Below, piece after piece: positions 7,021 to 51,028 of a stretch of DNA of 64,000 bases. The position numbers were made by a program, and so were the translations under genes. The stretch comes from Candidatus Omnitrophota bacterium. GTDB lineage: Bacteria; Omnitrophota; Gorgyraeia; JACQQV01. How positions within the stretch are numbered: the first letter of the stretch is position 1; every line of letters begins with the position of its first letter. The DNA is taken from positions 1,554 to 65,553 of the forward strand of contig JACQQV010000002.1 in the NCBI GenBank assembly GCA_016206785.1, read 5' to 3'. The notes beneath the pieces were generated by a model. The model saw only the letters and a list, made by a program, of their open reading frames with translations, had not been told where the DNA came from and did no database searches.

Positions 7021-7068
7021 TCGTCGCTCGTTGCTCGTGAAGCGAGATACGCTTCACGCTTCACGAAC
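7021..7068. repeat. Copy A of a CGTGAAGCG / CGCTTCACGAACGAC palindromic repeat family
   Basis: The sequence is tcgtcgctcgttgctCGTGAAGCGagataCGCTTCACGcttcacgaac, with a 9-bp stem and a 5-nt loop. It lies in the 66-nt gap between the ROK-2 stop and the GH94 start. Related copies are at about 41608-41666 and 50960-51015. Confidence 0.55.
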
Positions 7069-7083
7069 CCTCTGTTTCCCAGA

Positions 7084-8328
7084 TTACGCTTGGGCAAACG
7101 CACTCTGAATCACAAGACTCGCCGCACCGAGGGCGACCGCGTTCTCTCCCAGTTGGGAGGGAATGATCCGAACATCGGCGGCATGTTCTGAAAAAGAGCT
7201 TTTCTTCACGATCCGCTTGATCGGTTCCAAGATAATAGAACCCGCCTCCTCCATCCCCCCACCAATCACGACGACCTCGGGATTTACGAAATTGACCAAA
7301 AACGCGATCTTGATGCCGAGGGCCACCCCCGCATCCTCCACGAGTTCCGTGGCCAACGTATCTCCTTCCTTGGCAGCCTCGATGATTTTCTTGGCGGAGA
7401 GCTCTGGCACATGCTTCAAAGAGGAGTTGATTCCTTTGGCAATGGCGTCCCGTGCCTTTTCAATCATCCCCATGTCGAGTCCGACCATCTTCAGAGGGCC
7501 GAGGGGATGGTTTCCCTTCTCTTCAAACGGATCGTAAATCGTCACTTCCCCCGCGCCACCGCTTGTTCCCCGATACACTTCACCGTTAATGATGATGCCG
7601 CAACCCACACCCGAATACATATAAATCAGGTTTTTGATGCCCGGCTCAAGCCCGAGCCATAAGACCCCGAAGGCGGCAACGGTCGCATCATTTTCGATAA
7701 AGGTGGGGATATTAAAGCGATTTTCGAAAAGATCTTTCACAGAGATGGCGATGGAGACGTCATAGGGGCTCTCTTTCCCGGGGGCACCGATTTGGGAGGT
7801 CCAACGGACGGTACGGCCCGGTTCGTCGATGATCCCTGGGATGCCGACGCCGATCCCTTTGATTTTAGTGATGTCTATCTTCGATTCCGCGATGAGATCA
7901 CTGGCGAGCTGAATCAAGCCGTGGATGATCGCCTCGGCCGATTCCTGGGAAAGGGGGCTATTCCGCGTCGCCACGACAGGAGGCTTTTCCCGCTTGAGGT
8001 CCGTAATGACGCCTCCGGCAAGGTCCGTCAGTGTTCCAACCATGTTCGACATCGAAAGCCCCAGCCCGATCACATAGCCGACCTTCGGGTTAAGTTCCAA
8101 AAGAAGAGGGCGGCGTCCGCCGCCCGAAATGTCAAACCCCTTTTCGATCACGAGCCCTTCTTCGATAAAGTGATTCACATAGTTGGAGATCGTGACGATA
8201 TTGAGTTTGGTGAGTTTCGAAATTTCAGTCTTGGTGGTCTCTCTTTGCCGCCGGATCGCCTCCAGGATGAGGAGGTTCTTCCGCTCACGGTCGGTGAGGT
8301 CTTCATCAGTCGAGTAAACGCGTCTCAT
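7084..8328 (-). CDS. ROK-family transcriptional regulator (second paralog)
   Basis: It has an N-terminal HTH (LILEAIRRQRETTKTEISKLTKLNIVTISNYV) and ROK motifs (IGLGLS, GIGVGIPGIID, ENDATVAA). Confidence 0.8.
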   Translation of the reverse strand: MRRVYSTDEDLTDRERKNLLILEAIRRQRETTKTEISKLTKLNIVTISNYVNHFIEEGLVIEKGFDISGGGRRPLLLELNPKVGYVIGLGLSMSNMVGTLTDLAGGVITDLKREKPPVVATRNSPLSQESAEAIIHGLIQLASDLIAESKIDITKIKGIGVGIPGIIDEPGRTVRWTSQIGAPGKESPYDVSIAISVKDLFENRFNIPTFIENDATVAAFGVLWLGLEPGIKNLIYMYSGVGCGIIINGEVYRGTSGGAGEVTIYDPFEEKGNHPLGPLKMVGLDMGMIEKARDAIAKGINSSLKHVPELSAKKIIEAAKEGDTLATELVEDAGVALGIKIAFLVNFVNPEVVVIGGGMEEAGSIILEPIKRIVKKSSFSEHAADVRIIPSQLGENAVALGAASLVIQSAFAQA

Positions 8329-8410
8329 CTTACTTTCTTATCCCTTTTAAAAAGTCGCCTACTTAAGGTAACATAAGGCCAAAATGATGTCAATACTTTG
8401 TTTCAAAGGG

Positions 8411-9424
8411 CTATTTTCGCTTTTGAAAAGTAAGGTAGGTGCGGGTGAGTGTGCGCCAGACTTTCTCAGGATCGTCGCTTTTGAGGCAGGACATCTGGCC
8501 CGTTCCTTGATAGGACCATGCGGCGAAATTCCGGACCCCTTCCTCGTAGGCTGCCTCGAGGGCGATTCCGATCTTCTCCTCCTCCCCTTTTTTGATTTTA
8601 AAATTTAAGACCCAGACCTGGGGTTCCTTTCCGTAACGGAGGCAGAGATGGAAGACCTGACGTGCGTAATGCCGCACAAGTCCTTCGACATCTTTTACAC
8701 CGGCATGCCAGTAGGGATCGGTGCCGAGGACATCGAGGCTTTTGATCCGCGCCACAGGGGACCAATCCTGGAGCGTATGAATGGAGTAGACCTGCGGAAG
8801 AAGACAGACCGCATTCCGGAACCCTTCTTGCTTCGTGTAATCGCAAAATTTCTTAAGGAATCGGACAACCGTCTCCTCGCGAAAGAGAAGGACTTCCTCC
8901 GTGAGCGTCTTCGGCATCGGCTTTCCGAACTTCCCTGAAAAAAGTTTCTGACAGACCGGACAGCGACAGGCCCAGAGTTCTTTTTCTTTCTTCCCTTTAA
9001 AAATATAAAAGTGGGGCTCATCCCAGAAAAAAGTGTCCGTTTTGCAGTCAAAACCGGCGTCGCACCAGTTTTTGAGAAATTTCTGGAAGACCGGATGGTT
9101 GGGACAGGCAATGGGAAGGATTTTTCCGACGGAACTCACCTGTCTTGCTTCAGGATGGTGCACGAGAAATTCCGAGTAAGACTCTCCCCCGAAAACCCGT
9201 CCGACCGCCCAAGGGTCGAGATATACCTCGAGGTCCGCGTCGTGGGAGGCCTTCACAAAGTCTTTGAGGGTCCCGGGGTAATACTGGAGGTCTTGTTCGC
9301 TAAAGGTCAGAACGATGAAATGGCATCCCCCTCGAACGATCTCCTGAAGATCCTTCCTGAAGTGGTTCAGAAAATAATTCCCGAAATAGGAAACGCCGCA
9401 CTTCAAAGGAAACGCTTTCGCCAC
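8411..9424 (-). CDS. hypothetical protein (possible TIM-barrel sugar-active enzyme, Cys-rich)
   Basis: The 337-aa ORF is compact and in an operon position after ROK-2. I recognise no family. It contains a CRCPVCQ motif. Confidence 0.45.
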   Translation of the reverse strand: MAKAFPLKCGVSYFGNYFLNHFRKDLQEIVRGGCHFIVLTFSEQDLQYYPGTLKDFVKASHDADLEVYLDPWAVGRVFGGESYSEFLVHHPEARQVSSVGKILPIACPNHPVFQKFLKNWCDAGFDCKTDTFFWDEPHFYIFKGKKEKELWACRCPVCQKLFSGKFGKPMPKTLTEEVLLFREETVVRFLKKFCDYTKQEGFRNAVCLLPQVYSIHTLQDWSPVARIKSLDVLGTDPYWHAGVKDVEGLVRHYARQVFHLCLRYGKEPQVWVLNFKIKKGEEEKIGIALEAAYEEGVRNFAAWSYQGTGQMSCLKSDDPEKVWRTLTRTYLTFQKRK

Positions 9425-9426
9425 GG

Positions 9427-10476
9427 CTATTTTTTCCCCTTCTTCAATTGGTCAAGGGCTCTCTGGACCTGTACGTAATCCGGGTTGATGAGGAGTGCTT
9501 TCTGGTACTCCTGCATCGCCTCTTCATGCCGCCCCAACTGGTGAAGGGCATGTCCAAGGCCGTAGTGAAAATCGGCATAGTGTGGGTGCGCCGCCAAGGC
9601 GTCTTGATAGATCTGAACGAGGGTGTTGTAAAACCCGATATCCTTTTGGGCCTTCCGGAGCGCCATGAAAGTATCCGCGAGATTCGGGTCGATCATCAGG
9701 GCGCGTGAGAATTCCTCTTCTGCCTGCCGGAGAAAGGCCTCTTTGGCTTCTGGTGTTTCCTTTTTGAGAAGCGCAAGACCTTCTTGTAATTCGCGATTTT
9801 CCGGTGAGAGCGACAGTGCATGATGAAAGGTTTCGCTCGCCTTGGTCAGATCTCCAGAAAAGGCATAGGCGTATCCGAGTTTGAGATGGGCCTCGAGATA
9901 TCTCGCATTGAGTCGAATCGCTTCGCGGAAAGAGGCGATCGCGCCGGCATACTCCTTTTTGTGATTGAGAATCACACCGAGGAAATAGTGGAGGTCTGCA
10001 TGACGATTCTCCATCTCAATCGCCTTGCGAACCTCTAAAATCGCCTCATCGTATCGGCCGCTGTTACAATAAGCCAGGGAGAGCCGCAGGTGCCCCTGAG
10101 AATCGGCCGGTTCCTCTTCGATGACATAGGTGAGCTCCCGCAACGCCTCTGCATATCTTCCTTCATTGTTATAGCAGACCCCCAGATACGCATGGATCTC
10201 AAGATTTTCAGGGGTGAGTGTCACCGCTTTCTCAAATCTGGGAATCGCCTCGGCATAGCGGCCGGCATGCATGTCTACAAGCCCCAAATTGCGATACGCC
10301 TGTCCGGCATAGAAGAGGGCGAGTCGCGGATAAAGCCGGCCCCCCATCAACGGGCTCCTTGTGATCTTCTCAAATTCCTGAATCGCCTCCATGTAGGCGG
10401 CGCGATTGTAAAAGGCCATCGCCCGGTTGTAGGTTTCGTTACCCCCCAATGTCAGAATCTTCTTAAAAAGAGACAT
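9427..10476 (-). CDS. TPR-repeat protein
   Basis: Multiple 34-aa TPR units are present (AxxYxxLG..., EAIxxFxKAL...). The start was trimmed to the ATG at 10476, which is preceded by GGAGGATAAC. Confidence 0.75.
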   Translation of the reverse strand: MSLFKKILTLGGNETYNRAMAFYNRAAYMEAIQEFEKITRSPLMGGRLYPRLALFYAGQAYRNLGLVDMHAGRYAEAIPRFEKAVTLTPENLEIHAYLGVCYNNEGRYAEALRELTYVIEEEPADSQGHLRLSLAYCNSGRYDEAILEVRKAIEMENRHADLHYFLGVILNHKKEYAGAIASFREAIRLNARYLEAHLKLGYAYAFSGDLTKASETFHHALSLSPENRELQEGLALLKKETPEAKEAFLRQAEEEFSRALMIDPNLADTFMALRKAQKDIGFYNTLVQIYQDALAAHPHYADFHYGLGHALHQLGRHEEAMQEYQKALLINPDYVQVQRALDQLKKGKK

Positions 10477-10493
10477 GTTATCCTCCAATTTAC

Positions 10494-10550
10494 TGTTTAC
10501 GGTTTACGGTGTACGGTAATACCGTAAACCGTACACTGTCCACCGTACAC
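10494..10550. repeat. Heptad-periodic imperfect palindrome (GGTTTAC GGTGTAC GGTAATA | CCGTAAA CCGTACA CTGTCCA CCGTACA)
   Basis: The sequence read directly is tgtttacggtttacggtgtacggtaataccgtaaaccgtacactgtccaccgtacac. It can fold into a stem of about 20 bp with 3 mismatches and lies between the sugar-transferase stop (10554) and the TPR RBS. Confidence 0.5.
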
Positions 10551-10553
10551 TTT

Positions 10554-11180
10554 CTAATACGCTCCCCGGCGTGAAAGAACCGCCGGAAGGGTGCGAATTA
10601 AAATCTTGACATCCAAAAGAAACGACTGGTGTTGGATATAATAAAGATCGAGTTGAACCCATTCTGAAAAAGAGATCTCGCTCCGTCCGCTCACCTGCCA
10701 AAGACAGGTGAGGCCTGGTGTCACTTCAAGCCTTTTTCTCTGAAGCGGCGTGTAGACGGCCACCTCCTCTGGAAGGGGTGGCCTCGGTCCTACCAGACTC
10801 ATCTGTCCTTTCAGCACATTGATAAGCTGTGGAAGTTCATCCAATGTGGAGCGTCGCAGCAGGCGACCGACCCGCGTGACCCGTGGATCATTCTTGATTT
10901 TAAAGATGGGGCCTTCTGCAACGTTGAGATGTTTCAGTTGTTCCTTCATCTCTTCCGCCCCCGCCTGCATGGAACGGAATTTGTACAGGACGAAAGACTT
11001 CCCCCCTTTTCCGATGCGGACCTGTTTAAAAATGATCGGGCCTTTGGAATCGGCTCTGATGCAGAGGGCGATCAGCACCCAGAGTGGAAAAGACAAAAGG
11101 ATTCCGAGGAGAGACATGACAATGTCCATGAGCCTTTTGATCAAGTGATACCAGATGCCGTAAGAGTCTTTTTGGGTCAT
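10554..11180 (-). CDS. polyprenyl-phosphate sugar phosphotransferase (bacterial sugar transferase family, WbaP/PglC-like priming enzyme)
   Basis: It has a single N-terminal TM segment and the catalytic-domain motifs PIIFKQVRIGKGGKSFVLYKFRSM and DELPQLINVLKGQMSLVGPRP. The start was trimmed to an ATG that overlaps the upstream stop (ATGA). Confidence 0.85.
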   Translation of the reverse strand: MTQKDSYGIWYHLIKRLMDIVMSLLGILLSFPLWVLIALCIRADSKGPIIFKQVRIGKGGKSFVLYKFRSMQAGAEEMKEQLKHLNVAEGPIFKIKNDPRVTRVGRLLRRSTLDELPQLINVLKGQMSLVGPRPPLPEEVAVYTPLQRKRLEVTPGLTCLWQVSGRSEISFSEWVQLDLYYIQHQSFLLDVKILIRTLPAVLSRRGAY

Positions 11181-11926
11181 AGCGTGACGAGACGCCGCAA
11201 GAGATCCCTCCAAAAGGAGGCCAAATTTGCTTTAATAAGAATATCTACGAGCACAAAACCGAGGCCCACAAAAAAATATTGATAACACTTGTGACGATCC
11301 ATTCGGAAACGGAGGAGTTGGGATAAAAGAGGTTCCGAAAGTGCAATACCACACAACACAAATCCGATCGCCCTCAGAACGCTCCAGGGAGGCCATCCCA
11401 CAAGAGACGAAAGGAGAGGATGGTGGCTATGAAGCGAAAGGCTTCCGACGTAAAAATTCATATAATTGAGAAGAAGCGAGCCAAAAGCGAGTCCCCACAC
11501 CCCCGCCGTGAAAAAGGAACTGGCACAGAAAAGGAGAAAATGCTTCAAATGTTCCGGGAGGAAAAGTTTGAGGCTTCCTTCCCTCCCTTCACCGGTCAAA
11601 ATCCATTGAAACATTTCATCGCGGTATTCGATTCCCTTGAAGACCGCCTGCGCCATCCGTACATCGTCATACCGGACCAGGAGGATCATGCAGACAGAAG
11701 AAGCGAAGGCCCAAAAAAGGGTGTGGAAGAGAGCGAGGTCCCGACGACCCTGGCTTAAATCTAACGCGTAGACAGGATAAATGACAAGGGTCATCAAGGC
11801 CGGGAAAAAAGCTTTTGAACCGCTCGCTCGGGCCATGAAAAAAGTGATCGCTGTCCCCAGAAGAAGGTAGAGATAGCACTTCCTCGACCGCACCCATTTC
11901 TCGAGTTGCCGCTTCATGTGAAACAC
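11177..11926 (-). CDS. hypothetical polytopic membrane protein
   Basis: The 249-aa ORF has several hydrophobic segments and no recognised motif. Confidence 0.45.
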   Translation of the reverse strand: MFHMKRQLEKWVRSRKCYLYLLLGTAITFFMARASGSKAFFPALMTLVIYPVYALDLSQGRRDLALFHTLFWAFASSVCMILLVRYDDVRMAQAVFKGIEYRDEMFQWILTGEGREGSLKLFLPEHLKHFLLFCASSFFTAGVWGLAFGSLLLNYMNFYVGSLSLHSHHPLLSSLVGWPPWSVLRAIGFVLCGIALSEPLLSQLLRFRMDRHKCYQYFFVGLGFVLVDILIKANLASFWRDLLRRLVTL

Positions 11927-11964
11927 CTTATCTTTTTCGTTTTGACTTCTGAATTAGGAGTGCC

Positions 11965-12849: not shown

Positions 12850-12852
12850 CGG

Positions 12853-15182: not shown

Positions 15183-15188
15183 GATTTC

Positions 15189-15374
15189 TTATTTCTTCTC
15201 AGAAAGTTTCTTCAACGACAAGGCGATGGAGAGCGCCAGACATCCCATCGCAAACCGCCAATAGACAAGCGGAGAAAAAAGGACCTCTTGTCCTGCAACC
15301 TTCAAGAGGATTCCCACCGCGAAAGAGAGACCTCCCATGAGAATGAGTACGTCAACGAGTTCTTTGTCTTTCAT
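15189..15374 (-). CDS. small 2-TM membrane protein (61 aa)
   Basis: It fills the gap between two operon genes and has two hydrophobic helices. There is no other support. Confidence 0.3.
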   Translation of the reverse strand: MKDKELVDVLILMGGLSFAVGILLKVAGQEVLFSPLVYWRFAMGCLALSIALSLKKLSEKK

Positions 15375-15388
15375 GACCCCTCCTTTCG

Positions 15389-17527: not shown

Positions 17528-17528
17528 A

Positions 17529-20815: not shown

Positions 20816-20871
20816 GGAAGTATTATACCACTCTCCGAAGTCGTTGTACCAGGAAGAGGGATTGGGGTATA

Positions 20872-38213: not shown

Positions 38214-38228
38214 CTTAAATTTGAAACC

Positions 38229-39473: not shown

Positions 39474-39487
39474 TTTACGTTACCGCA

Positions 39488-39516: not shown

Positions 39517-39559
39517 GCAATACAAGAAGTTACTGACAAAAGAGGGCAACTGTGTTAAG

Positions 39560-40834
39560 ATGGTACCCGCTATGGAAAAGCGGATCGAGGAAATCAATCG
39601 ACTCATCAAGTTCTTCCCAGGAGAAAGGGGACGGGAACTCTGGATCGGCACCCTTGTTCAAGACTTCATCGGGATTTATAACGACCTCTTTGAGGAACTC
39701 CCCGGCTACGTCCGCTACACCTTCCTCGAACGGTTCGGGGAATTCATCGAACGGGAACTGAAAGAAATTAAGGAACTGAGGAGCGCTTACGGAAAAGAAT
39801 TTGAGAAGATCCGTGAGGCGAAGGACGCGCTGGAGTTGGCACAGGTCCGGAAAACGCTCACGCGCATTACTGGAAAACTCTTTGAAAAGACCTACGCCGT
39901 CATGGAGACTCATGAATTCTGCACTCAGTACCATGACCACCTCACCCAGCAGGCTGTTCGTCTTGTTGAAGCGTCATTGCGTAAAGAAAAAGGGAAGCCA
40001 CGGGGACAGTACGCCTGGATCCGGATGGGAAGCGCAGGCCGGGAAGAACAGACACTTACCGCAGACCAAGACCATCTCCTTGTCTATGAACGGGCGGAGG
40101 ATGCCTCTTATTTCAGGCGTTTTTCCGAACGGATGGTCTCGGGACTTGAGAAAATAGGATTCGCCCAGTGTCTGGGAGATACCATGGCGACAAATCCCAG
40201 GTGGCGGGGAACTTTTTCCGAATGGAAAAAAAGAATCAAAGAAATGACTCAAAAAGAGGAAGAGCAGATCGGTCTCATGATTCTCATGGATGCCAAATAT
40301 TCCGCCGGCGATCCGGAACTGGCTCAACAGTTCATCCAGATGGTTCGGAAAGAAACGCTTGAGACGCGGGGGTTCCTTCGGGAATTTGCAAAAACCGCAA
40401 CGCTCATGCCGGTCGCACTCACCCTCTTCCGCCGGTTTAAGACCGAGCGCTCCGGAAAACACAAAGGAAAATTTAATGCAAAACTGGAGGGATGGATGCC
40501 ACTTGTCATGACAACGCTCGTCTTCGCTTTAAAATACGGCGTCTTGGATACCAATACCGTCAAGCGGATCCGGGCCCTCGAGAAACAGGGCCATTTCGAA
40601 CCGGACTTTTCGGCGAATCTTCAGGAGGCCTATTTTATGCTCACCCGTGTGAAGATTTTAAAACAGATCGCGGCCCTCAAGGAGCACCGCAAGCCCGATT
40701 ACTATGTGAATCCCAACGACCTTCCTCCCAAACAGCGGCAGAAACTCCATGAAGCGCTTCTGTGTGTGGACCAACTCAAACGGATCGCTTATTCCAGTTT
40801 CCACTTAAGCGCCGCGGATATTCGGGGAGTATGA
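39560..40834 (+). CDS. DUF294-type putative nucleotidyltransferase with DUF294_C substrate-binding domain
   Basis: It has the nucleotidyltransferase motif WIRMGSAGREEQTLTADQDHLLVYE (GS...D.D), followed by a helical C-terminal domain. Confidence 0.65.
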   Translation: MVPAMEKRIEEINRLIKFFPGERGRELWIGTLVQDFIGIYNDLFEELPGYVRYTFLERFGEFIERELKEIKELRSAYGKEFEKIREAKDALELAQVRKTLTRITGKLFEKTYAVMETHEFCTQYHDHLTQQAVRLVEASLRKEKGKPRGQYAWIRMGSAGREEQTLTADQDHLLVYERAEDASYFRRFSERMVSGLEKIGFAQCLGDTMATNPRWRGTFSEWKKRIKEMTQKEEEQIGLMILMDAKYSAGDPELAQQFIQMVRKETLETRGFLREFAKTATLMPVALTLFRRFKTERSGKHKGKFNAKLEGWMPLVMTTLVFALKYGVLDTNTVKRIRALEKQGHFEPDFSANLQEAYFMLTRVKILKQIAALKEHRKPDYYVNPNDLPPKQRQKLHEALLCVDQLKRIAYSSFHLSAADIRGV

Positions 40835-41622
40835 AAATCCTTTTATCCAATGGAAGCTTTTACCATTTCTCCTGCGAGAAGGTGGCGCAGCTCGCGAAGG
40901 CCTCCGGATTTGACGGCCTCGCCCTCATGATTACACGGGAATTTGAGGGGCGTAACGAAAGAGAACTGGTTGAGAAGTGCCAGAAGATTCTTCCGGTCTT
41001 GTCTATCCATTCTCCTTTCCTTGCACTCAGACATTGGGGAGATCCGATCGATAAAATCGAGCGTTCTGTGGAATTGTGTCTTGCGACCGGCATTCCGCTT
41101 CTCACTTTTCATCCCCCGGCTTGGCTTTTCCTAGAAGTGGGGTTTAGTGTTTGGTTTGCCGGTATCCGCGATTTCCAAGAGGAGGTCGGGAAAAACAGGG
41201 TGATGGTCAGCATCGAAAATATGTCCCGCCTCAAACGTTACTTTTGTGATCCCCATCTTCTTTCACGAACGGCGAGCCTCATGCATTTTATAGAAAAAAG
41301 AAATCTCTACTTAAGTTTCGACAGTTCGCATATGGGAACAAAGAAGGCTGATTTTTTGGAAGACTTCGATCGGCTCTACCAGACGGGAAAAGTGAAGCAG
41401 GTGCAGTATAGCGACTACCGGGACGGCCATGAACACTTAAGACCCGGCCGAGGCGTCCTCCCCCTCGATCAACTGCTTCGATACCTGCATGAAAAGAATT
41501 ATTCAGAGACACTCTGTATCGAACTTTTTCCGGAAGAATTCCCGAAAGAGGAAGAAGCGATTGTAAAAATTCTGAGAGATATCTTGAGAGAAATTCGTGA
41601 GAGAAAGTCTCGTATCTCGTGA
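40831..41622 (+). CDS. sugar phosphate isomerase/epimerase (xylose-isomerase-like TIM barrel)
   Basis: The 263-aa protein has an ATGA overlap with the upstream gene and GGGGAG just before the ATG. Histidine and glutamate residues are spaced as in the AP-endonuclease-2/xylose-isomerase-like fold. Confidence 0.6.
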   Translation: MKILLSNGSFYHFSCEKVAQLAKASGFDGLALMITREFEGRNERELVEKCQKILPVLSIHSPFLALRHWGDPIDKIERSVELCLATGIPLLTFHPPAWLFLEVGFSVWFAGIRDFQEEVGKNRVMVSIENMSRLKRYFCDPHLLSRTASLMHFIEKRNLYLSFDSSHMGTKKADFLEDFDRLYQTGKVKQVQYSDYRDGHEHLRPGRGVLPLDQLLRYLHEKNYSETLCIELFPEEFPKEEEAIVKILRDILREIRERKSRIS

Positions 41623-41666
41623 AGCGTATCTTTTATTTTGTTTGCGAACGACGCTTCACGAACGAC
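41608..41666. repeat. Copy B of the CGTGAAGCG / CGCTTCACGAACGAC palindromic repeat family (terminator-like)
   Basis: The sequence is tctcgtatcTCGTGAAGCGtatcttttattttgtttgcgaacgaCGCTTCACGAacgac. It spans the isomerase stop codon and sits between convergent genes. Confidence 0.55.
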
Positions 41667-41671
41667 AGCTT

Positions 41672-43447: not shown

Positions 43448-43529
43448 CGGGATTTTTTGTAAGATGAAACGAAAGCCAGAGTAACATAAAAAGATGGTTT
43501 TGACAAGGAGTTTCTTGTAAAATCGAGAG

Positions 43530-45758
43530 GTGCGAATCCCTCGGTTCAATATTTATCTTATCTTACTTTTTTCACTTCTTTTGCTTCTTTCACTTCCATC
43601 CCCCGCCTCTGCCGAAAAAATCACGCTCACTCTCTGGGAATTCTCCGGCTACGAAGAACTGATGCAGGAGCTCCTCAAAAAATTCGAGGCCGAACACCCT
43701 CACATCAGGATCAAGGTGCAGCAACTTTCCTGGGAACATGGTCTTGAAAAGATCATCGTCTCGATCGCTGCAGGCAACGCCCCCGATGTGGTAGAACTTG
43801 GAACCGATTGGGTGCCCAAATTCGCCTCCGCGGGAGTCCTGCGCGACCTCACCGAAGAAACAAAAGACCTTCAAGAGGCTTATTTTCTATGGGAGGCTGC
43901 GACCTATGACAAGAAACGGTTCGGGGTTCCGTGGCTTGCCGGTACCCGTATCCTTTTTTATAACCGCGATCTTTTCAAGCGGGCAGGGCTCGATTCTGAA
44001 AAAGTACCCAAAACATGGGAAGAGCTTCTGGAAGCGGCAAAAAGCATCCGTCGTCTTGGAGAAAATATTTACGGATTTGCCATCTTCGTGGGAGAACCTT
44101 ACAGCCCCTGGCAGGAATTCCTTCCCTTCGCATGGGGAAATGGGGCAAAAATTTTAAGCGACGATCAAAAGCGGTGTCTCATCGACTCACCCGAGATGGT
44201 TGAGGCTCTTTCCTATTATCAGAAGTTAAAACCTTACTCGCTCATCGATCGACAGTCTCAGGTGAACAATCTTTTCGCCGACAACAAAGTAGGAATGCAG
44301 ATCTCCGGTGCATGGAATTTCCGACTTATTCCACGTCTCAATCCGCAGCTTAATTTTGGCGTTGCCCTCCTTCCGAAACCGGCCCCCGACCGGGGTTTCC
44401 CCGCCTCTTTCGCGGGAGGGGAGATCTTCTCGATCCTTAAAAGTTCGCCTCACCCGGAAGAGGCGATGGCTCTCATCCGGTTCATGACCGAAGAAGAAAA
44501 TGCGATTGAGGTTGTAAAACTCCAGCAGAACGTTGTCCCGACGTTTAAGAAAAGTATGGATCACTCCTATTTCAAGACCCATCCTGACCAGCGTCTCTTT
44601 TTCGAACAGATGGCAACCGCCGTCGCCCCTCCGAACCATCCCCTCTGGGTCGACATGCAAGAGCACCTCACCCGAGCCATTGAAGAAGTCATCGTTCAAA
44701 ATACCCCTCCCCAAAAAGCACTCCGTCGCGCCAAGGAGAGAATCGAGAGAATTCTCGTTGAAGAAAAGGCACCGTTTGCACTGAAGGAGCGGGTTGTTGC
44801 GCTTTCGTTGGGCGGCGGACTCTTCCTGATCGGGATGCTTCTTTTCATGCGGAAAAAATCAGCCGTATTTTCGGGGAAGACATTCCTCCGAGAAAATAGG
44901 ACAACATGGATTTTTCTTTCCCCATGGCTTCTGACCTTCCTTCTTTTCGGTCTCTACCCCCTCTTTCATTCCCTCCTCATCAGTCTTTCACGCTATAACC
45001 TTCTGAATGCGGAGGTCACATTTGTCGGTTTCCAGAATTATGCAGCACTCCTTAAAGACAGAGACTTTCATCATGCGTTCTGGCATACCCTTTTCTTTGC
45101 TGCAGGAACTATCCCTTTTACCCTTCTTCTTGCGCTCATCACCGCGATCCTCATCCACCGGAAGATTCCTTTCAAAGGCCTCTATCAGGCGGGCCTTTTC
45201 CTTCCCGTCTCTACCTCTGTGATCGTGATTGCAACCCTCTTCCTCTACCTCTATTCACCCGAGGGCCTCTTCAATGCGCTTCTCGATCAATTCGGTCTTC
45301 CCAAACCGGACCCGACGTGGCTCGTGAACATCCACTTCGCACTACCGAGCATCATGGTGATGAACATCTGGGCCAGTTTCGGTTATTACATGATTTTAAT
45401 CCTGGCAGGACTTCAAGCGATTCCAGAATCTCTGTATGAGGCGGCGGAAATCGACGGGGCGAATGAATGGCAACGGTTTTGGCATATTACACTCCCCCAG
45501 CTCCGCCCGATCCTCCTTTTTGTGGGGGTCATCCAGACCATCTATTCTTTTCAGGTCTTTCCGGAGGTCCTCACCATGACACAAGGGGGACCGTTGGGGG
45601 CTACGACAACGGTCGTCTACCACCTCTATGAGACCGGTTTTCAAAAATTTGAAATGGGCCTCGCCTCGGCGGTCGGATATTTTCTTTTCCTTGTGATCAT
45701 GATTTTTTCCTTGGCTCAAATGCGGCTCTTTAAATTGGGGGAGCAAACCGGGGAATGA
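43530..45758 (+). CDS. fused ABC sugar-binding protein (SBP family 1) and MalF/UgpA-type permease
   Basis: It has a signal peptide, an SBP_bac_1-like domain of about 420 aa, a TM linker, and a 6-TM permease with the EAA motif (ESLYEAAEIDGANEWQ). It forms a single ORF of 742 aa. Confidence 0.75.
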   Translation: MRIPRFNIYLILLFSLLLLLSLPSPASAEKITLTLWEFSGYEELMQELLKKFEAEHPHIRIKVQQLSWEHGLEKIIVSIAAGNAPDVVELGTDWVPKFASAGVLRDLTEETKDLQEAYFLWEAATYDKKRFGVPWLAGTRILFYNRDLFKRAGLDSEKVPKTWEELLEAAKSIRRLGENIYGFAIFVGEPYSPWQEFLPFAWGNGAKILSDDQKRCLIDSPEMVEALSYYQKLKPYSLIDRQSQVNNLFADNKVGMQISGAWNFRLIPRLNPQLNFGVALLPKPAPDRGFPASFAGGEIFSILKSSPHPEEAMALIRFMTEEENAIEVVKLQQNVVPTFKKSMDHSYFKTHPDQRLFFEQMATAVAPPNHPLWVDMQEHLTRAIEEVIVQNTPPQKALRRAKERIERILVEEKAPFALKERVVALSLGGGLFLIGMLLFMRKKSAVFSGKTFLRENRTTWIFLSPWLLTFLLFGLYPLFHSLLISLSRYNLLNAEVTFVGFQNYAALLKDRDFHHAFWHTLFFAAGTIPFTLLLALITAILIHRKIPFKGLYQAGLFLPVSTSVIVIATLFLYLYSPEGLFNALLDQFGLPKPDPTWLVNIHFALPSIMVMNIWASFGYYMILILAGLQAIPESLYEAAEIDGANEWQRFWHITLPQLRPILLFVGVIQTIYSFQVFPEVLTMTQGGPLGATTTVVYHLYETGFQKFEMGLASAVGYFLFLVIMIFSLAQMRLFKLGEQTGE

Positions 45759-46903
45759 ATACCGTGAAATTTAAAGAGTTATGGATCGTGGGAATTCTCA
45801 CCCTTCTCCTCATCTTGACCCTTGCCCCTTTGGTCTTGATGTTCTACTGGTCGGTGAAACCGGGCGGAACGCTCACAAAGCCGGTTCGTGAGATTGTCCT
45901 TACCCCCTCGGATTCCATCCCTCTTCGTCTCGATATGCGAAAATTCACACACCTTGAATTCTTCGTAAAAGGGGAAAAAGGAGGAGAATCTTTTAGGGTC
46001 GTTTTAAAGGATATCCTTGGAAATGAGGTCGCAGTTCCGATTCAAGAGATGCTGAAAGGAGGGGTCTCTCAGGACTGGCAAAAGGTTTCACTTCCGATAG
46101 ATCGCTTTGACCTCTCGCAACTCAATCCCGCGATTCTTGAGAAGGTGGCGGAAGAACTGATGTTTGTCCTCGATAAGGAAGGGGCGGAGAAAATTTTCAT
46201 AAAAGAAGTGCGCCTCGCGTTTAAACGCTTTACCCTTGTGAACTATGTGGATGTCTTGGTCGGCGGGTTTTTCGGACGGTATTTCATCAATAGCCTCCTC
46301 ATCACCCTCGTTGTAGTTTTGGGAAATCTTCTTTTTTCCTCGATGGTCGGTTACGCCTTCGCGCGGAAGGAATTTCCCGGAAAGGAATTTCTTTTCCTCC
46401 TCATCCTCGGAAATATCATGATCCCTTCACAGGTCCTCATGATACCGATCTTTATCCTCATGAAAAATCTCCATTGGCTGAATACCTACTGGGCCCTCAC
46501 GATTCCGGCGCTCGTCGCCCCCTTCAATATCTTCTTCATGCGGCAGTATATCTCGGCCCTCCCCTCCTCTTTGGAGGATGCGGCGCGTATCGACGGGGCG
46601 GGGGACTTTCAAATTTTTTTCCGAATTGTGCTCCCTCTTTCAAAACCGGCCCTTGCGGTCGTCGGGATCAACACCTTCATGGGAAGTTGGAACACATTCT
46701 TGTATCCTTTTCTCCTCACCAATACCCCTGAGATGCGCACCCTTCCTGTGGGACTTGCCCTCTATAAGAGCTTGATGGGGGTTGATTGGGTCCGCCTCAT
46801 GGCCGCCTCCAGCATCACCGCACTCCCTGTGATTCTTACCTTTCTTTTCTTCCAGCGCTACATCATTGCAGGCTTAACCGCCGGCACTGTCACCAAAAAA
46901 TAA
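45755..46903 (+). CDS. MalG/UgpE-type ABC permease with about 150-aa periplasmic insertion related to the VKGEKGGE domain family
   Basis: It has the EAA motif (SSLEDAARIDGAGDFQ) and 6 TM helices. The loop between TM1 and TM2 contains FFVKGEKGGESFRVVLKD...QDWQKVSLPIDRF, which matches the domain found in the proteins encoded at 49164-53355. Confidence 0.75.
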   Translation: MNTVKFKELWIVGILTLLLILTLAPLVLMFYWSVKPGGTLTKPVREIVLTPSDSIPLRLDMRKFTHLEFFVKGEKGGESFRVVLKDILGNEVAVPIQEMLKGGVSQDWQKVSLPIDRFDLSQLNPAILEKVAEELMFVLDKEGAEKIFIKEVRLAFKRFTLVNYVDVLVGGFFGRYFINSLLITLVVVLGNLLFSSMVGYAFARKEFPGKEFLFLLILGNIMIPSQVLMIPIFILMKNLHWLNTYWALTIPALVAPFNIFFMRQYISALPSSLEDAARIDGAGDFQIFFRIVLPLSKPALAVVGINTFMGSWNTFLYPFLLTNTPEMRTLPVGLALYKSLMGVDWVRLMAASSITALPVILTFLFFQRYIIAGLTAGTVTKK

Positions 46904-46937
46904 AAAACGGAGTGACGACCCTATGTCACTCCGTTTA
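46895..46937. terminator. bidirectional rho-independent terminator
   Basis: The sequence is aaaaaataaaaaACGGAGTGACgaccctatGTCACTCCGTtta, a 10-bp stem with an 8-nt loop. The minus-strand reading is followed by a long U tract and the plus-strand reading by UUU. Confidence 0.6.
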
Positions 46938-46955
46938 GAAACCGAAAAACTTAAC

Positions 46956-48209
46956 TTAGTCGCCGGCGCCGACGGTGGTCTTCCGTTCCTCCTTGGTGAG
47001 TTCGAAAATCCTCCGGAAAAGTTTCTCCTCCCGCGCTCCGAGTTTAACCTTCCGACGGGACATAACGCGTTCGGCCACCTCCAACCCCTTCTCGAGTTTG
47101 TAGGTGGTGAGTCCTGACGCGCCTCCCCACGAGAAGGAAGGAATATATTTCGGAGGGAAACCGGCACCGAAGACATTGGAGGAAACACCGACGACGGTTC
47201 CGGTATTTAACATCGTATTCACTCCCGTCTTCGAATGGTCTCCCATCGTAAGCCCGACAAACATTGAGCCGGAATCGACCATCCTCCCATCCACCCAGAC
47301 TTTCACGTTTCCGTAATTGTTCTTAAGGTCACTGTTAGAGGTTCCGGCACCCAAGTTACACCATTCGCCGATATAGGCGTGACCGAGAAATCCGTCATGC
47401 TGCTTGTTCGAGTAAGCATGGAGGATCGAGCCCTCGACCTCTCCTCCTATCTTGCAGACAGGACCGATACTCGTATTTTCATAGATCTTGGCGTTTATCT
47501 TGAGTTTGGTTTCATCCCCGATATAGGCGGGACCCTCAACGACAGAGTTCGGGAAGATCGTTACATTTTCGCCAATGTAGATAGGGCCGTTTTCTGCGTC
47601 GAGCACCACACAGGGTTTAATCTTCGAGCCTTTCCCAATATAGATCTGGGAAGGATTCAAAAGATACGTTCCGTCATAGACCTTGCCGTGGTTTGAACCT
47701 TTTTTCCCTACGAGAAGTTCAAAGTCCCGGACGATCTCGTTTCCATTATTCTGCACAAGGTCCCATGAATACTTGACGAGCTTTGCTTTGACCTTCCGGA
47801 CCTTCACCCCCTTTACGGTCTTGAGGAGCCTTTCTTCAAGGAAGACCTGAGGGGTGACTTTCTTTGCATTCTCCTGCGACAGACGCGCGTAGACGACGGT
47901 ATCATCCTGAACTCCGATCTCCTCTTTTCCTTCAAGAGGAATAACTTCGCCGATGAGGAGCCGGCTGTTGAGGAAAAGGGTGTTTTCTTTCTCAACGGTC
48001 AAGCGGTTTACGCCGAAGGAATCACGACCTTTGAGAAGGTCCGCGATATAGTCTCTGCAGAAAAGGGTGATCGATGCCTTGGGGTATCGGCGGACCACCT
48101 TTTCCTGCAAAAGAAGGATGCCGCAGCGGAGTGCTGAGACCGGCCGCATATAAACAAGCGGAAGGAGTGTGCGATAAGAGGCGTCTTCAAAAATGCGGAT
48201 TTCTTTCAT
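46956..48209 (-). CDS. GlmU-related left-handed beta-helix protein (putative sugar nucleotidyltransferase/acyltransferase, no classical NTP-transferase domain)
   Basis: The N-terminus MKEIRIFEDASYRTLLPLVYMRPVSALRCGILLLQEKV is followed by hexapeptide repeats (IGENVTIFPNSVVEGPAYIGDETKL...). It is homologous to an internal region of the 2256-aa protein. Confidence 0.65.
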   Translation of the reverse strand: MKEIRIFEDASYRTLLPLVYMRPVSALRCGILLLQEKVVRRYPKASITLFCRDYIADLLKGRDSFGVNRLTVEKENTLFLNSRLLIGEVIPLEGKEEIGVQDDTVVYARLSQENAKKVTPQVFLEERLLKTVKGVKVRKVKAKLVKYSWDLVQNNGNEIVRDFELLVGKKGSNHGKVYDGTYLLNPSQIYIGKGSKIKPCVVLDAENGPIYIGENVTIFPNSVVEGPAYIGDETKLKINAKIYENTSIGPVCKIGGEVEGSILHAYSNKQHDGFLGHAYIGEWCNLGAGTSNSDLKNNYGNVKVWVDGRMVDSGSMFVGLTMGDHSKTGVNTMLNTGTVVGVSSNVFGAGFPPKYIPSFSWGGASGLTTYKLEKGLEVAERVMSRRKVKLGAREEKLFRRIFELTKEERKTTVGAGD

Positions 48210-49051
48210 CGCCGGGTTCCCACCTTTTCACGCCGCGCACTTTTCCTGCGGGGCGTCTCCATGGAGCAACACGATTCCTCACGACCTTGCAGCTTCAGGA
48301 TGCTCGGTTCCGCCGGATATTCGCGTGTGAGTTTGCTAGCGGCCGCTTTGTCCGTAATGATCGTGGCTTTCGGATGAAGCTGGACGATAGTCGCCGGAAC
48401 CATCGCGGTAATCGGCCCCTCGACGGTCATTGCGATCGCATCCGCCTTGTTGTCTTTATTGGCGAGGAGGATCAGTTGACGCGCCTCCATGATCGTTCCG
48501 ATTCCCATCGTGACCGCATACCGCGGCACTTCATCGAGTGACTTGAAGAAACGGGCGTTGTCTTGCCTTGTCCGCTCATCGAGCGTTTTCACACGGGTTC
48601 TTGACCCGAGGCTCGATCCCGGTTCATTAAAGGCGATGTGGCCGTTGGCACCGATTCCCAAAAGCTGGATATCGAGCCCACCGGCCTTCTTGATCTTTCT
48701 CTCATACGCCTCGCAGGCGGCTGGAATGTCGTCCGCCATCCCATTGGGGACGTTGGTATTTTGCTTCTTAATGTTGATGTCCTTAAAGAGGTTTTTATTC
48801 ATGAAATAGCGGTAACTTTGATCGTGATCGGGGAGAAGTCCAACATATTCATCAAGGTTAAATGTCGTGACCTTGGAGAAATCAAGCCCTTCATTTTTAT
48901 GGAGACGGATGAGTTCTTTGTAGGTTCCGACCGGGGTGCTTCCTGTTGCGAGTCCCAACACACAGTTGGGTTTTTTGCGGATGAGATCCGCGATGATCTG
49001 GGCCGCAAGGGTGCTCATTTCTTCGTAACTATCCTTGACTATGACTTCCAT
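48206..49051 (-). CDS. nagB: glucosamine-6-phosphate deaminase
   Basis: It has the NagB signature GLATGSTP and LGIGANGHIAFNEPGSSL. GGAGG sits 7 nt before the ATG. A C-terminal extension of about 30 aa overlaps the next gene (ATGA). Confidence 0.85.
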   Translation of the reverse strand: MEVIVKDSYEEMSTLAAQIIADLIRKKPNCVLGLATGSTPVGTYKELIRLHKNEGLDFSKVTTFNLDEYVGLLPDHDQSYRYFMNKNLFKDINIKKQNTNVPNGMADDIPAACEAYERKIKKAGGLDIQLLGIGANGHIAFNEPGSSLGSRTRVKTLDERTRQDNARFFKSLDEVPRYAVTMGIGTIMEARQLILLANKDNKADAIAMTVEGPITAMVPATIVQLHPKATIITDKAAASKLTREYPAEPSILKLQGREESCCSMETPRRKSARREKVGTRR

Positions 49052-49071
49052 GTTTTTCCTCCTTTAATAAG

Positions 49072-49101
49072 CCCCGTTAGAAATGTCCATTTCTAACGGG
49101 G
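49072..49101. promoter_or_regulatory. perfect 14-bp inverted repeat with 2-nt loop upstream of nagB RBS
   Basis: The sequence read directly is CCCCGTTAGAAATGtcCATTTCTAACGGGG. It lies about 10 nt upstream of the nagB GGAGG. Confidence 0.4.
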
Positions 49102-49163
49102 TAAGCAAATGATTTAAGGCAAATTTTTATTTTAAGAGATATACCTCTTTTTGTCAAGTCCCC

Positions 49164-49769
49164 TCATTCCAACATCAAATCGTCAATATATATAGACCCC
49201 TGCCCTGCTCCGCCCGGAAAACACTCGGTTTCAAAGCAGATGGCGATCGCGGCGATCTCCGAAAGATCTATCCCGAAAACATCGAGGGGAATAGAGGCCC
49301 GTTGCCAATCGGTCGTGATCTTCCCTTCCGGAAGATAGGTCCCGACATCTTCTGACTTTACGGTATCGTCCAATTCATCCCAGTGGCGATCCGAAATTCC
49401 TATCCGGAAATTTTCATCCCCCTTCGCCCCCTTCACCCAGAAATGAAGGATCTTAAAATGGCTTGCGTCTAGGTGTTTCTCGGCGATCTTCACGCGGGTG
49501 TAAAATCCGCACCATCCTCCTTTTCCATAAGGTCCCCCGACCCCTTTCTTGTCATAATCGAGTTTGAGTGCCTTTCCCCCCGGATCATGGCTTACCTCTG
49601 CGCTGACCGTGGCGACCGCCCGCGAAGGGGCCTGCTGATAGACGCTGGAGGCGCCCCCGAGGACATTGGACCGTTTGTCAAATTTGTGGATGATAAATTC
49701 CTCGGCAAATGCACACGTTCCTAGCGACAAGAAACAAGCGACAAGAAACGGTGTCTTTTTCACAACCAT
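49164..49769 (-). CDS. secreted protein with one VKGEKGGE-type beta-sandwich/CBM-like domain
   Basis: It has a signal peptide (MVVKKTPFLVACFLSLGTCAFA). The domain contains LDYDKKG...GWCGFY...FWVKGAKGDENFRIGISD...YLPEGKITTDWQRASIPLDVF. GGAGG is immediately 5' of the ATG at 49769. Confidence 0.7.
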   Translation of the reverse strand: MVVKKTPFLVACFLSLGTCAFAEEFIIHKFDKRSNVLGGASSVYQQAPSRAVATVSAEVSHDPGGKALKLDYDKKGVGGPYGKGGWCGFYTRVKIAEKHLDASHFKILHFWVKGAKGDENFRIGISDRHWDELDDTVKSEDVGTYLPEGKITTDWQRASIPLDVFGIDLSEIAAIAICFETECFPGGAGQGSIYIDDLMLE

Positions 49770-49831
49770 CCTCCTGCAGTTCGGAGTGGGGAGTTGGGAA
49801 TGTGGATTCCACACTCCGCATTCCGCACTCA

Positions 49832-51028
49832 TCATTTCCTCAAATGGAATTTTAAGTCGTCGATATATAAAACCCCTTCCTGTTTCTTATAAAAATTGAT
49901 GACAAAAGATCCCATCTGGGAGAAATCGAGGAGACCGAAATCTTGCAGAGGAATCGTGACCTCTTGCCATTCGGTGGTGACCCCTCCGGGAAGATATGCT
50001 TCAATCGGTCCCGCCTTCACTGAATCTCCAATCGTGAGCCAATTGCGATCCGCCATCCCGATTTCAAAGATCTCTCCCCCCCTCTCTCCCTTCACCATAA
50101 ACGTGAGCCTGTCATACCAGGAAAGGTCGAAGAAGGCGCCGTCAATTTCATTGAGAAGCGTATAGTACCCGCACCAACCGGTCCCTTCTTTTTGATAGGA
50201 AAGCTGTAAAGAGCGCCCCTTTCCTCCCCAGCGAGGTTCAGAAACGTGATTGAAGACGCAAACGGAAGGAAGTTTTTTGTAGCAGTTCGTCTTCCGACCG
50301 AGGAGATTTAAGTCATCATGATCAAAGTTGTCGAGGAGAAGATACCCCTGCTTTTCGATCTCCGCTTCCCGGTCGACCCTCTGCTCGGTGTGAAAGGTCA
50401 CTTCATCAATCCAGAAAGCGCCCTTTCCTATTTCGTTAAAATGAAAAACAATGCTGTACACCCGTGAAAGATCGGGGCCGAACCAGTCGCTTAATGGAAC
50501 TGCGACGCGCTGCCACTCGGTCGTAATCCCCTGCGGGAGGTATCGATAGATCGAACCGACAAAGACGGCATCCTCGCGCTTATTGGAAATAACGTCGTTC
50601 AAGCCCAGCTCAAACGTCTCCCCTCCCTTTTCTCCTTTGATATAAAACGTCATTGTTTTGTATTGAGAAAGATTCGCCATAATAATAAGGTAGGTGCCAA
50701 CAAATTCTTTCTCGCTCCGCCGGTCGTAAAGATATTTGACCGCTTCCTTGTCTTTCCCTTCCGGGTAAAACATCGTACCGTCGACAAAACAGCCGTATCG
50801 GGAAGGTTCGAGATTAAACCCGCCGATCCGCCCTCGGAACCCGAATTTTCGCTCTGCGGGAGTAAGGAAAGTATCTTGAGGAAGTGGGGGAAGATCTTTA
50901 AGCAGGATCGACTCCGCCCATGTGGGGGTAATGAGAAGGAGAAGAACAATAAGAGCGTATTTCGTATCTCGTGAAGCGTGAAGCGAGATACGCTTCACGA
51001 ACGACGAACGACGAGATTTATTTCTCAT
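49832..51028 (-). CDS. secreted protein with two tandem VKGEKGGE-type domains
   Basis: Copy 1 reads FYIKGEKGGETFELGLND...YLPQGITTEWQRVAVPLSDW. Copy 2 reads LSYQKEGTGWCGYY...FMVKGERGGEIFEIGMAD...YLPGGVTTEWQEVTIPLQDF. The start overlaps the upstream stop (ATGA). Confidence 0.7.
   Translation of the reverse strand: MRNKSRRSSFVKRISLHASRDTKYALIVLLLLITPTWAESILLKDLPPLPQDTFLTPAERKFGFRGRIGGFNLEPSRYGCFVDGTMFYPEGKDKEAVKYLYDRRSEKEFVGTYLIIMANLSQYKTMTFYIKGEKGGETFELGLNDVISNKREDAVFVGSIYRYLPQGITTEWQRVAVPLSDWFGPDLSRVYSIVFHFNEIGKGAFWIDEVTFHTEQRVDREAEIEKQGYLLLDNFDHDDLNLLGRKTNCYKKLPSVCVFNHVSEPRWGGKGRSLQLSYQKEGTGWCGYYTLLNEIDGAFFDLSWYDRLTFMVKGERGGEIFEIGMADRNWLTIGDSVKAGPIEAYLPGGVTTEWQEVTIPLQDFGLLDFSQMGSFVINFYKKQEGVLYIDDLKFHLRK
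50960..51015. repeat. Copy C of the CGTGAAGCG / CGCTTCACGAACGAC palindromic repeat family (inside 5' coding end)
   Basis: The sequence is tcgtatctcgtgaagCGTGAAGCGagataCGCTTCACGaacgacgaacgacgag. It encodes the SSFVKRISLHASRDT n-region of the signal peptide of the 49832-51028 gene. Confidence 0.55.

Follow-up and report, generated by a model that had tools for sequence, protein, structure and literature searches.

Palindromic repeats built of 7-nt units at gene junctions of an Omnitrophota genome, with counterparts in other phyla and in viral contigs

Several described systems resemble the repeat treated here. Cyanobacterial short tandemly repeated repetitive (STRR) sequences are tandem heptamer repeats. 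The omega-repressor operators of inc18 plasmids consist of contiguous 7-bp heptads in direct and inverted orientation; they lie at promoters and have a ribbon-helix-helix partner. Rickettsia palindromic elements (RPE) are inserted in frame in protein genes, as Ogata et al. reportedly found in 2000. The CGTC-tagged super-family of repetitive extragenic palindromic (REP) sequences, known from several phyla, has an 8-9 bp stem, a loop of 4-5 nucleotides (nt) and an unpaired CGTC or TGTC at one end; it has no dedicated transposase, and some copies lie inside genes (PMC3733652). Its stems begin with A-T pairs at the first and second positions, and there is a CCA tail (Di Nocera, De Gregorio and Rocco 2013, PMC3733652). 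RPE-4 and RPE-6 have been equated with CGTC REPs (PMC3733652). TAACTGA heptamer repeats occur in Beggiatoaceae, Cyanobacteria and Bacteroidetes (PMC4679880). The subject of this work is a palindromic repeat with three copies (A, B and C) in a 64-kb stretch of a Candidatus Omnitrophica metagenome-assembled genome (MAG); the stretch (contig JACQQV010000002.1) is called the window below. The copies probably belong to a non-autonomous palindromic family with heptad architecture, similar to REPs and bacterial interspersed mosaic elements (BIMEs), for which no transposase was found.

The 9-mer CGTGAAGCG/CGCTTCACG has eight matches on both strands of the window, and none lies outside the three sites (7036-7065, 41618-41660 and 50970-50999). 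The mean count by chance is 0.46; none of 100 dinucleotide-preserving shuffles reaches eight. An earlier reading of the window without database searches (the sequence-only reading) had reported three palindrome copies, with A an inverted version of C. Both observations hold: the copies lie where they were placed, and a repeat finder gives A and C as an inverted match of 46 nt with 83% complementarity. Copy B has the arms of A and C, but around a 25-nt AT-rich loop. The copies and their stems are as follows.

7022..7065, no strand assigned: copy A, CGTCGCT CGTTGCT CGTGAAG CGAGATA CGCTTCA CGCTTCA CG
7036-7044 with 7050-7058 (or 7057-7065): stem of copy A, 9 bp, 5-nt loop
41611..41666, no strand assigned: copy B, CGTATCT CGTGAAG CGTATCT, 13 AT-rich nt, CGAACGA CGCTTCA CGAACGA
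41618-41626 with 41652-41660: stem of copy B, 25-nt loop
50956..51013, no strand assigned: copy C, CGTATTT CGTATCT CGTGAAG CGTGAAG CGAGATA CGCTTCA CGAACGA CGAACGA CG
50977-50985 with 50991-50999: stem of copy C, 9 bp, 5-nt loop
50963-50971 with 50984-50992: alternative stem of copy C, CGTATCTCG with CGAGATACG, mutually exclusive with the first

All three copies consist of heptamers in CG phase. The 5' arm has the plan (CGT-NNNN)n and is followed by a short loop and a 3' arm of (NNNN-ACG)n, the four-letter words being GAAG, ATCT and CGTT. Units of the 5' arm are mainly CGTGAAG, CGTATCT and CGTCGTT; those of the 3' arm are the reverse complements CTTCACG, AGATACG and AACGACG. Six phased CGT or ACG runs of at least three units are present in the window (0.46 in shuffles), and five of these belong to heptad elements. 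The predicted folding energies of the hairpins are -22 to -30 kcal/mol (z of -2.6 to -4.2); copy A has -29.6 kcal/mol on its sense (-) strand, with z = -4.2. A solid 9-bp stem is formed by one CGTGAAGCG/CGCTTCACG pair only; CG-anchored extensions of it are weaker, and the flanking heptads of the two arms are not mirror images.

Chance or local duplication could be considered in view of the small copy number in the window. This explanation is refuted by the shuffles, by the unrelated genes that flank the copies and by the wide occurrence of the element elsewhere, and its probability is close to nil. Copy A is also seen in L119, a Logan assembly of this region that was made independently, and is therefore not an assembly artefact.

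A periodicity scan of the window revealed two further heptad palindromes, which are built of other words:

10489..10553, no strand assigned: fourth heptad palindrome, TTTACGG three times and TGTACGG, loop TAATA, then CCGTAAA / CCGTACA
49776..49827, no strand assigned: fifth heptad palindrome, 52 nt, TGCGGAA TGCGGAG TGTGGAA TCCACAT TCCCAAC TCCCCAC TCCGAAC TGC

The fourth follows a stop codon and lies between a Bac_transf gene homolog and the GGAGGA Shine-Dalgarno sequence and ATG of a TPR gene. The fifth lies between ATGATGAG and AGGAGGATGG, where it separates an ATGA gene junction from the AGGAGG ribosome-binding site of a gene that likely encodes a lipoprotein (MKKTPFLVAC).

The history of these sites can be read from six syntenic contigs of related Omnitrophota (L120, L121, L341, L342, L343 and L345), which were found through close homologs and have protein identities of 70-87%. 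All five heptad-palindrome sites of the window show insertion polymorphism. Site A lies in a short spacer:

7018..7083, - strand: 66-nt spacer holding copy A, from the stop codon of a ROK gene (7084) to the ATG of a GH94 gene (7017)

This site is empty in L341 (TAAacgATG) and L342 (TAAaATG), so that the complete spacer is inserted relative to them; at this position L343 has a palindromic insert of 146 nt that is unrelated. Site 10489 is empty in L341 and L342 too, while L343 carries a GAGAATG/CATTCTC palindrome. L121 lacks an element at site B, and its two genes overlap there. At the same site, L120 has CGGATAG CGTAGAG CGTACAG CGGATAG, a loop, and CGCTATA CGCTAAA CGCTCCA. At site 49776, L345 has an uninterrupted ATGATGAGAGGAGGATGG; the 52-nt element of the window is consequently a precise insertion, without duplication. 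Compared with the relatives, the insertions are discrete, 50-95 nt long and without visible target duplication, and are found in stop-to-start spacers, between convergent stop codons and just past a start codon.

On this comparison, the elements are insertions into otherwise tight junctions, probably followed by rapid remodelling of the words in both arms. After insertion, 7-nt units would be gained and lost, and exchanged between arms or between copies. Slippage by 7 nt, template switching from arm to arm and conversion from other copies are candidate mechanisms. Such remodelling would explain why orthologous sites of sister genomes carry different sets of words ("dialects").

Two of the copies overlap the ends of coding sequences, in agreement with the sequence-only reading:

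40762..41622, + strand: xylose-isomerase-like TIM-barrel gene; its last codons (..SRIS) and TGA come from the left arm of copy B
49832..51028, - strand: gene for a secreted CBM30 protein of 398 amino acids; copy C lies within codons 6-24 (RRSSFVKRISLHASRDTKY)

Copy B occupies the gap between the convergent isomerase-like and SSF symporter genes. The stop codon of the isomerase-like open reading frame (ORF), at 41620-41622, is the TGA of CGTGAAG in the left arm. Copy C encodes residues 6-24 of MRNKSRRSSFVKRISLHASRDTKYALIVLLLLITPTWA (followed by ES), which form the n-region of the signal peptide (MRNKS..ALIVLLLLITPTWA, then ES). The start codon of the CBM30 gene (ATG, 51028) overlaps the upstream TGA as ATGA and is preceded by GGAG; NCBI annotates an identical 398-aa product. 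There is no other in-frame start ahead of the hydrophobic core of the CBM30 protein. Tolerance of the element inside coding sequence, as first proposed from the letters, is thus borne out by a copy that is translated in frame.

L120 has an ATGA-coupled ATG at site C which is in frame with the downstream protein over 44 codons. Its 94-nt element is open in that frame only, and the 58-nt element of the window is likewise open in the CBM30 frame; the two versions differ by 36 nt, which is a multiple of three. The Joint Genome Institute (JGI) call for L120 is a shorter product (MLNAVSTVWA), which would lack the charged n-region. Since the frame is open through both elements, the length difference is a multiple of three and the short call lacks the n-region, the reading frame through the element has been kept by selection. 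When an element lands in a signal-peptide n-region, the host would keep the frame and translate an Arg/Lys/Ser-rich stretch; the frame itself is seen in both genomes, and the product would presumably still be exported.

The junction at site C has been occupied in several ways. L121 has no element there (MRNRSFLCF...). L120 has CGTACAT AGTACAT CGTACTT CGTGAAA, a loop, and TTTCACG ATGTACG AAGTACG, an interior that is longer than that of the window; the outer edges are common to both (CGTCGTTCGTCGTTCGT ... ACGAAATACG) and the interiors differ. A more distant relative, L344, carries a TGTC-tagged ATTCCCGC/GCGGGAAT REP dimer, translated as CHSRVSGNL..IAAFAAMT:

1519-1581 of L344: REP dimer, ATTCCCGC-GTAA-GCGGGAAT and ATTGCCGC-TTTC-GCGGCAAT, inside the orthologous CBM30 signal-peptide coding region

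Site C is a recurrent landing site, and signal-peptide n-regions appear to tolerate such inserts. Evidently, tandem 7-nt units can also be carried in frame in these N-termini, to judge from their sequences.

Peptides similar to that of L344 are found at the N-termini of several other homologs, e.g. IPAFAGMT and MPAKAGIHY. In L345, four direct CGGATTT heptads lie inside the signal-peptide coding sequence at site C (2049-2094). L120 has a direct array of four TCTATAG/TCTATGG units, then TCTTTTG.., inside signal-peptide coding sequence at 6548-6616.

The distribution of the element was assessed with the pattern CGTGAAGCG-N(3-33)-CGCTTCACGAAC (21 specified bases), which was scanned against 596 Gb with one genome per species. 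The scan matched at least 118 loci, against about 8 expected by chance on the author's own estimate. Assignment to phyla is by record title. Among the matches listed, 77 are from Nitrospira/Nitrospirota and 41 from others; 13 of these 41 were judged by eye to be chance hairpins in coding DNA. The remaining 28 heptad-type loci outside Nitrospirota are from Omnitrophota (5), Planctomycetes-labelled records (9), Pseudomonadota-labelled MAGs (4), Smithellaceae, Syntrophaceae, Desulfobacteraceae and similar Desulfobacterota (7), Latescibacterota (1, in a complete 8-Mb chromosome) and two others. A strict heptad criterion selects at least 84 elements among about 118 fetched loci. The same words dominate throughout: CGTGAAG/CGCTTCA, CGTATCT/CGAGATA, CGTCGTT/CGAACGA and CGTGAAA/CGTTTCA.

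Unbiased scans with the two 9-mers alone found more heptad-type elements in metagenome contigs and in viral contigs of IMG/VR; some viral contigs have several copies, each directly upstream of a ribosome-binding site. The surrounding genes, called crudely as ORFs, are co-directional for 56 elements (25 in one orientation and 31 in the other), convergent for 13 and divergent for 5. In the window, two copies are between co-directional genes and one is between convergent genes. The dispersed REP-like family, similar also to miniature inverted-repeat transposable elements (MITEs), that had been surmised from three copies in 64 kb is upheld over local duplication by more than 100 loci in other genomes and metagenomes, and by the empty sites in syntenic relatives.

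Known RNA families do not account for the element. At gathering thresholds, Rfam gave no hits in the window and only tRNAs in 18 element-bearing loci; in a permissive scan of copy C, the best E-value was 0.2, to a small nucleolar RNA model. In full-text literature, the 9-mers matched only unrelated papers (primer and microRNA studies), and 14-15-mers of the element matched nothing. No description of a repeat of this kind in Nitrospira or Omnitrophota was found in the searched literature. The heptad architecture is new, and the phyletic spread is unusually wide.

Individual loci show further arrangements. Many heptad hairpins with the common interior CGTCGTTCGTTTCCGGATTCGGACGTTTCACG are found in the Nitrospira loci L081, L030, L047, L005, L025, L049, L073 and L097; they are nested in a longer inverted repeat, ATGCTGAAAAAGNCCGCCAGC ... 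GGCCTTTTTGAGCAT, to give a composite of about 130 nt. The viral contig L148, from IMG/VR, has runs of forward-type heptads (CGTGAAG, CGTGAAA, CGGAAAT, CGTAACT) at 4367-4445, 6818-6847, 9813-9870 and 10421-10457. The last two are direct arrays of 8 and 5 phased units, with heptad-like units further upstream, and are followed by CGCAAAGGAG and ATG.

In five Nitrospirota-type loci (L029, L071, L084, L183 and L258), the element is in an identical position directly upstream of the ribosome-binding site of a gene whose product starts with MAYSDKV, presumably an IscU-like protein. Three of these are labelled genome records and two are unlabelled metagenome contigs. The common position suggests long-term retention of the element at this orthologous site.

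The arms of the element have a fixed arrangement. In viral contigs, 64 matches have the convergent arm order, 19 of them heptad-type. There are 41 matches with the divergent order; two of these are heptad-type, and both are two adjacent convergent elements. A hairpin alone would permit either order, so the arrangement is fixed. Such polarity would be expected for copies of a common template or for targets of a specific factor.

The arms are not copies of each other. Beyond the GAAG core, mirrored words are found in 8 of 417 comparisons between arms; the null, from arms shuffled between elements, is 4.5 +/- 1.1%. The two arms also share fewer words than the null predicts (0.080 against 0.113 +/- 0.012). 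Neither a fold-back origin nor selection for a long perfect hairpin would be expected to give such values, and both were rejected. A strict two-ended polarity, with one ATCT-type and one CGTT-type end, was also considered. The CGTCGTT word is present in 13 of 42 elements of an unbiased sample, at one end only in 11; with 8 asymmetric and 4 symmetric elements in the unbiased set, there is a tendency only.

The nature of the mobiliser is the next question. Classical REPs, and REP doublets forming hairpins (REPINs), are mobilised in trans by a REP-associated tyrosine transposase (RAYT) of the Y1 HUH type, which would recognise the hairpin and a 5' tag on single-stranded DNA. Either the RAYT of the window or another one in the genome could act in this way. 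The window does contain a RAYT-like gene, as the sequence-only reading had remarked when it linked the copies to it:

53542-54108: RAYT-type Y1 transposase ORF; Pfam Y1_Tnp 66 bits, NCBIfam REP_Tyr_transpos 73 bits (model cut-off 80)
53397-54156: RAYT cassette, with 43-nt inverted repeats carrying GGGACTWAGTCCC, one upstream and two downstream

The insertions also lack target duplications, which would fit a RAYT. No target duplication is expected in the 'peel and paste' transposition of the IS200/IS605 type. A second RAYT-like gene, 40% identical to that of the window, is present in L342 (13657-14479, between ROK and phosphoglucomutase genes); its flanks, GTAGACGCTTTA / TAAAGCGTCTAC, resemble a heptad word. 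The right end of this L342 gene appears to give phosphoglucomutase a new N-terminus, MGYVKRLLREGK.

However, the hairpins that flank the RAYT of the window are unrelated to the copies: they carry GGGACTWAGTCCC, which is confined to these flanks within the window, and contain no heptads. By comparison with L120, the cassette was inserted independently and lies between two copies of CGTGTAA. L345 has a 72%-identical RAYT in the same position with the same hairpins, yet it has no CGTGAAG element. A phmmer search of about 340 fetched loci (more than 2.2 Mb) around elements found no RAYT homolog, and the 120 best RAYT homologs include no record labelled Nitrospira, in which the element is mainly found. 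No GTAG tetranucleotide adjoins any of the three copies, and the NCBIfam score is below the model cut-off. Given its own unrelated hairpins, the cassette insertion, the pattern in L345 and the lack of homologs near elements, the RAYT of the window is rejected as the mobiliser. The proposed link is unsupported in general as well, and mobilisation by any RAYT is improbable.

Effects on RNA or on a neighbouring regulator were also weighed. The elements could be terminators or attenuators, or copy A could be an operator of the adjacent ROK regulator. The hairpins are predicted to be stable, they lie downstream of genes and between convergent genes, and copy A separates the GH94 phosphorylase gene from a ROK-family gene and ends 4 nt ahead of the GH94 ATG; no clear Shine-Dalgarno sequence was seen between copy A and this ATG. 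Yet an intrinsic terminator (a GC-rich hairpin with a T-tract) is not present at any of the three sites, which have no T-tract and no match in a consensus scan; the terminator role first suggested is not supported by the sequence. Copy C lies within expressed coding sequence. The ROK-GH94 pair has essentially no spacer in L341 and L342, and other phyla have this palindrome in hundreds of unrelated settings. No sigma-70 promoter match was found at any of the three copy sites. ROK operator, intrinsic terminator and promoter were accordingly rejected as candidates, and a role as terminator, attenuator or operator is very unlikely.

A different possibility is a functional code in cis, in which arrays of 7-nt sites are read by a conserved protein that modulates expression at junctions. 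One candidate reader is a DNA-binding protein that forms polymers along heptads, as the ribbon-helix-helix omega repressor does; another is a single-strand RNA binder with a 7-nt footprint, e.g. a cold-shock-domain protein. Such a code would fit the strict phasing by 7 nt (CGT/ACG invariant, 4-nt words differing), the convergent polarity, arms that are not selected to pair (8 of 417 mirror matches, null 4.5%) and a vocabulary that is nearly identical over phyla. Direct arrays of 6-12 heptads right upstream of CGCAAAGGAG and ATG in L148 are in keeping with it, and the TAACTGA repeats of Beggiatoaceae are a precedent (PMC4679880). On the other hand, close relatives have the same genes entirely without elements. 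Elements lie between convergent genes and inside coding sequence, and are rare in divergent spacers, which contain promoters. Several unrelated word sets occur within one genome, and no candidate protein was found. A code of this kind is unlikely.

A non-autonomous family of REP or BIME type is the preferred explanation for the copies. Elements arrive at gene junctions as discrete insertions, with a 7-nt unit punctuated by CG as the building block. Once transcribed, the element would form a hairpin of moderate stability, whose presence in intercistronic RNA would be tolerated; it may buffer the 3' end of the upstream message, and is not an intrinsic terminator. The mobiliser is not the RAYT of the window.

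Several observations weigh against this explanation. The insertions with exact boundaries show no target-site duplication. No autonomous partner was found: there are three pairs of forward and reverse arrays 0.3-6 kb apart, and the one inspected (L051) spans a tRNA gene. When ORFs within 1.5 kb of elements were clustered for 167 loci, no transposase family emerged; the sole recurrent neighbours are receiver-domain (REC) response regulators, at 20 of the 167 loci, and this may reflect the abundance of the family and the inclusion of orthologous loci. The copies of the window are mosaics, not the near-identical full-length copies of typical MITEs or REPINs. Near-identical words over phyla are unusual for REPs and might instead reflect a conserved factor and a genuine function. 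Finally, these heptads form purely direct arrays in L148 that immediately precede ribosome-binding sites, a position that hints at a role in expression.

Because of these near-identical words, the phasing and polarity, and the direct arrays of L148, a heptad-reading protein remains the main alternative. That a conserved code is read by a factor which Nitrospirota, Omnitrophota, Planctomycetota, Desulfobacterota and their phages have in common, or pass on horizontally, is a tentative possibility. The factor might be a new kind of mobilisation machinery that does without HUH transposases and places heptad palindromes at gene junctions, or a protein that binds the arrays and tunes expression inside operons. 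If so, the word-set "dialects" would track variants of the factor.

The element is of interest for several reasons. Nitrospira, which comprises nitrite oxidisers and comammox bacteria, and Omnitrophota are important in the environment, although few of them have been cultured; their genomes appear to share an undescribed repeat family. The same words and polarity over phyla, with no transposase in sight, raise the question of whether the element is spread by some mechanism or held by some factor. By supplying stop codons or signal-peptide n-regions, elements form new ORF ends or lengthen existing ones, and they can mislead gene callers, e.g. in the truncated JGI start in L120; they are also break points for metagenome assembly. 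In-frame copies are a natural experiment on the insertion tolerance of signal peptides.

The region encodes polysaccharide synthesis and carbohydrate use. Two ORFs of the window are unusual domain fusions. The first (43530-45758, 742 aa) joins a solute-binding protein domain to an ABC permease domain, and the second (45755-46903, 382 aa) joins a CBM30 domain to an ABC permease domain. Both fusions are kept in L120; in L121 the first is kept, and only the permease domain is listed for the second ORF.

Compared with known systems, the element has the features of REPs in the general sense: a palindrome present at many unlinked sites (three in 64 kb and more than 100 loci elsewhere) and rare in divergent spacers. 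Like REPs and BIMEs of Enterobacteria and Pseudomonas, it is a short imperfect palindrome of high copy number which favours co-directional and convergent junctions, forms mosaics of a few modules and is transcribed as a hairpin. It differs from them in its heptad periodicity and in having neither a GTAG tag nor a cognate RAYT. REPs are normally lineage-specific, while the words of this element are nearly identical over several phyla. REPIN/REP-RAYT systems are a poor match, as the RAYT here has no cognate repeats at its flanks and there is no GTAG 5' of the hairpin. The same applies to MITEs, given that there is no target-site duplication and no transposase family clusters near elements.

Integron attC sites have core sites R''/L''...L'/R' (RYYYAAC ... 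GTTRRRY) next to an integrase. An attC-like site was rejected: measured against this consensus, the order is reversed in the element (..CGTT.. on the 5' side, ..AACG.. on the 3' side), and there is no Rfam match.

CGTC-tagged REPs agree with the element in the stem and loop size of copies A and C, in the occurrence in several phyla, in the lack of a known transposase and in having copies inside genes. A CGTC or TGTC motif can be seen in each copy (CGTC at 7022 in A, TGTC on the minus strand in B and CGTC twice on the minus strand in C), with CGTCGTT beside the core in A and C and TGTCGTT in B; the tag is present in only about one third of family members. The tendency of CGTCGTT towards one end recalls the one-ended tag of that super-family. 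The canonical TGTC-ATTCCCGC REP dimer of L344 occupies the same signal-peptide site as copy C. In contrast to CGTC REPs, the stem starts with C-G and G-C pairs and has no CCA tail, and tandem iteration of heptads has not been described for that super-family.

RPE are palindromic repeats within coding sequence that are translated as an extra peptide segment, as copy C is. However, they are 100-150 bp long and Rickettsia-specific; the inserts at site C are 58-94 nt long, lie in a signal-peptide n-region and consist of heptads. Omega-repressor operators are likewise made up of 7-bp units that abut one another and favour direct and converging orientations; unlike them, the element has neither a promoter position nor a ribbon-helix-helix partner, and the sequences are unrelated. 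STRR and TAACTGA repeats also have a 7-nt unit, are intergenic and often upstream of start codons, have a patchy distribution over phyla and lack an established mechanism. They are direct repeats of one word, whereas in the present element mixed words with CG at their start form two convergent arrays around a hairpin core.

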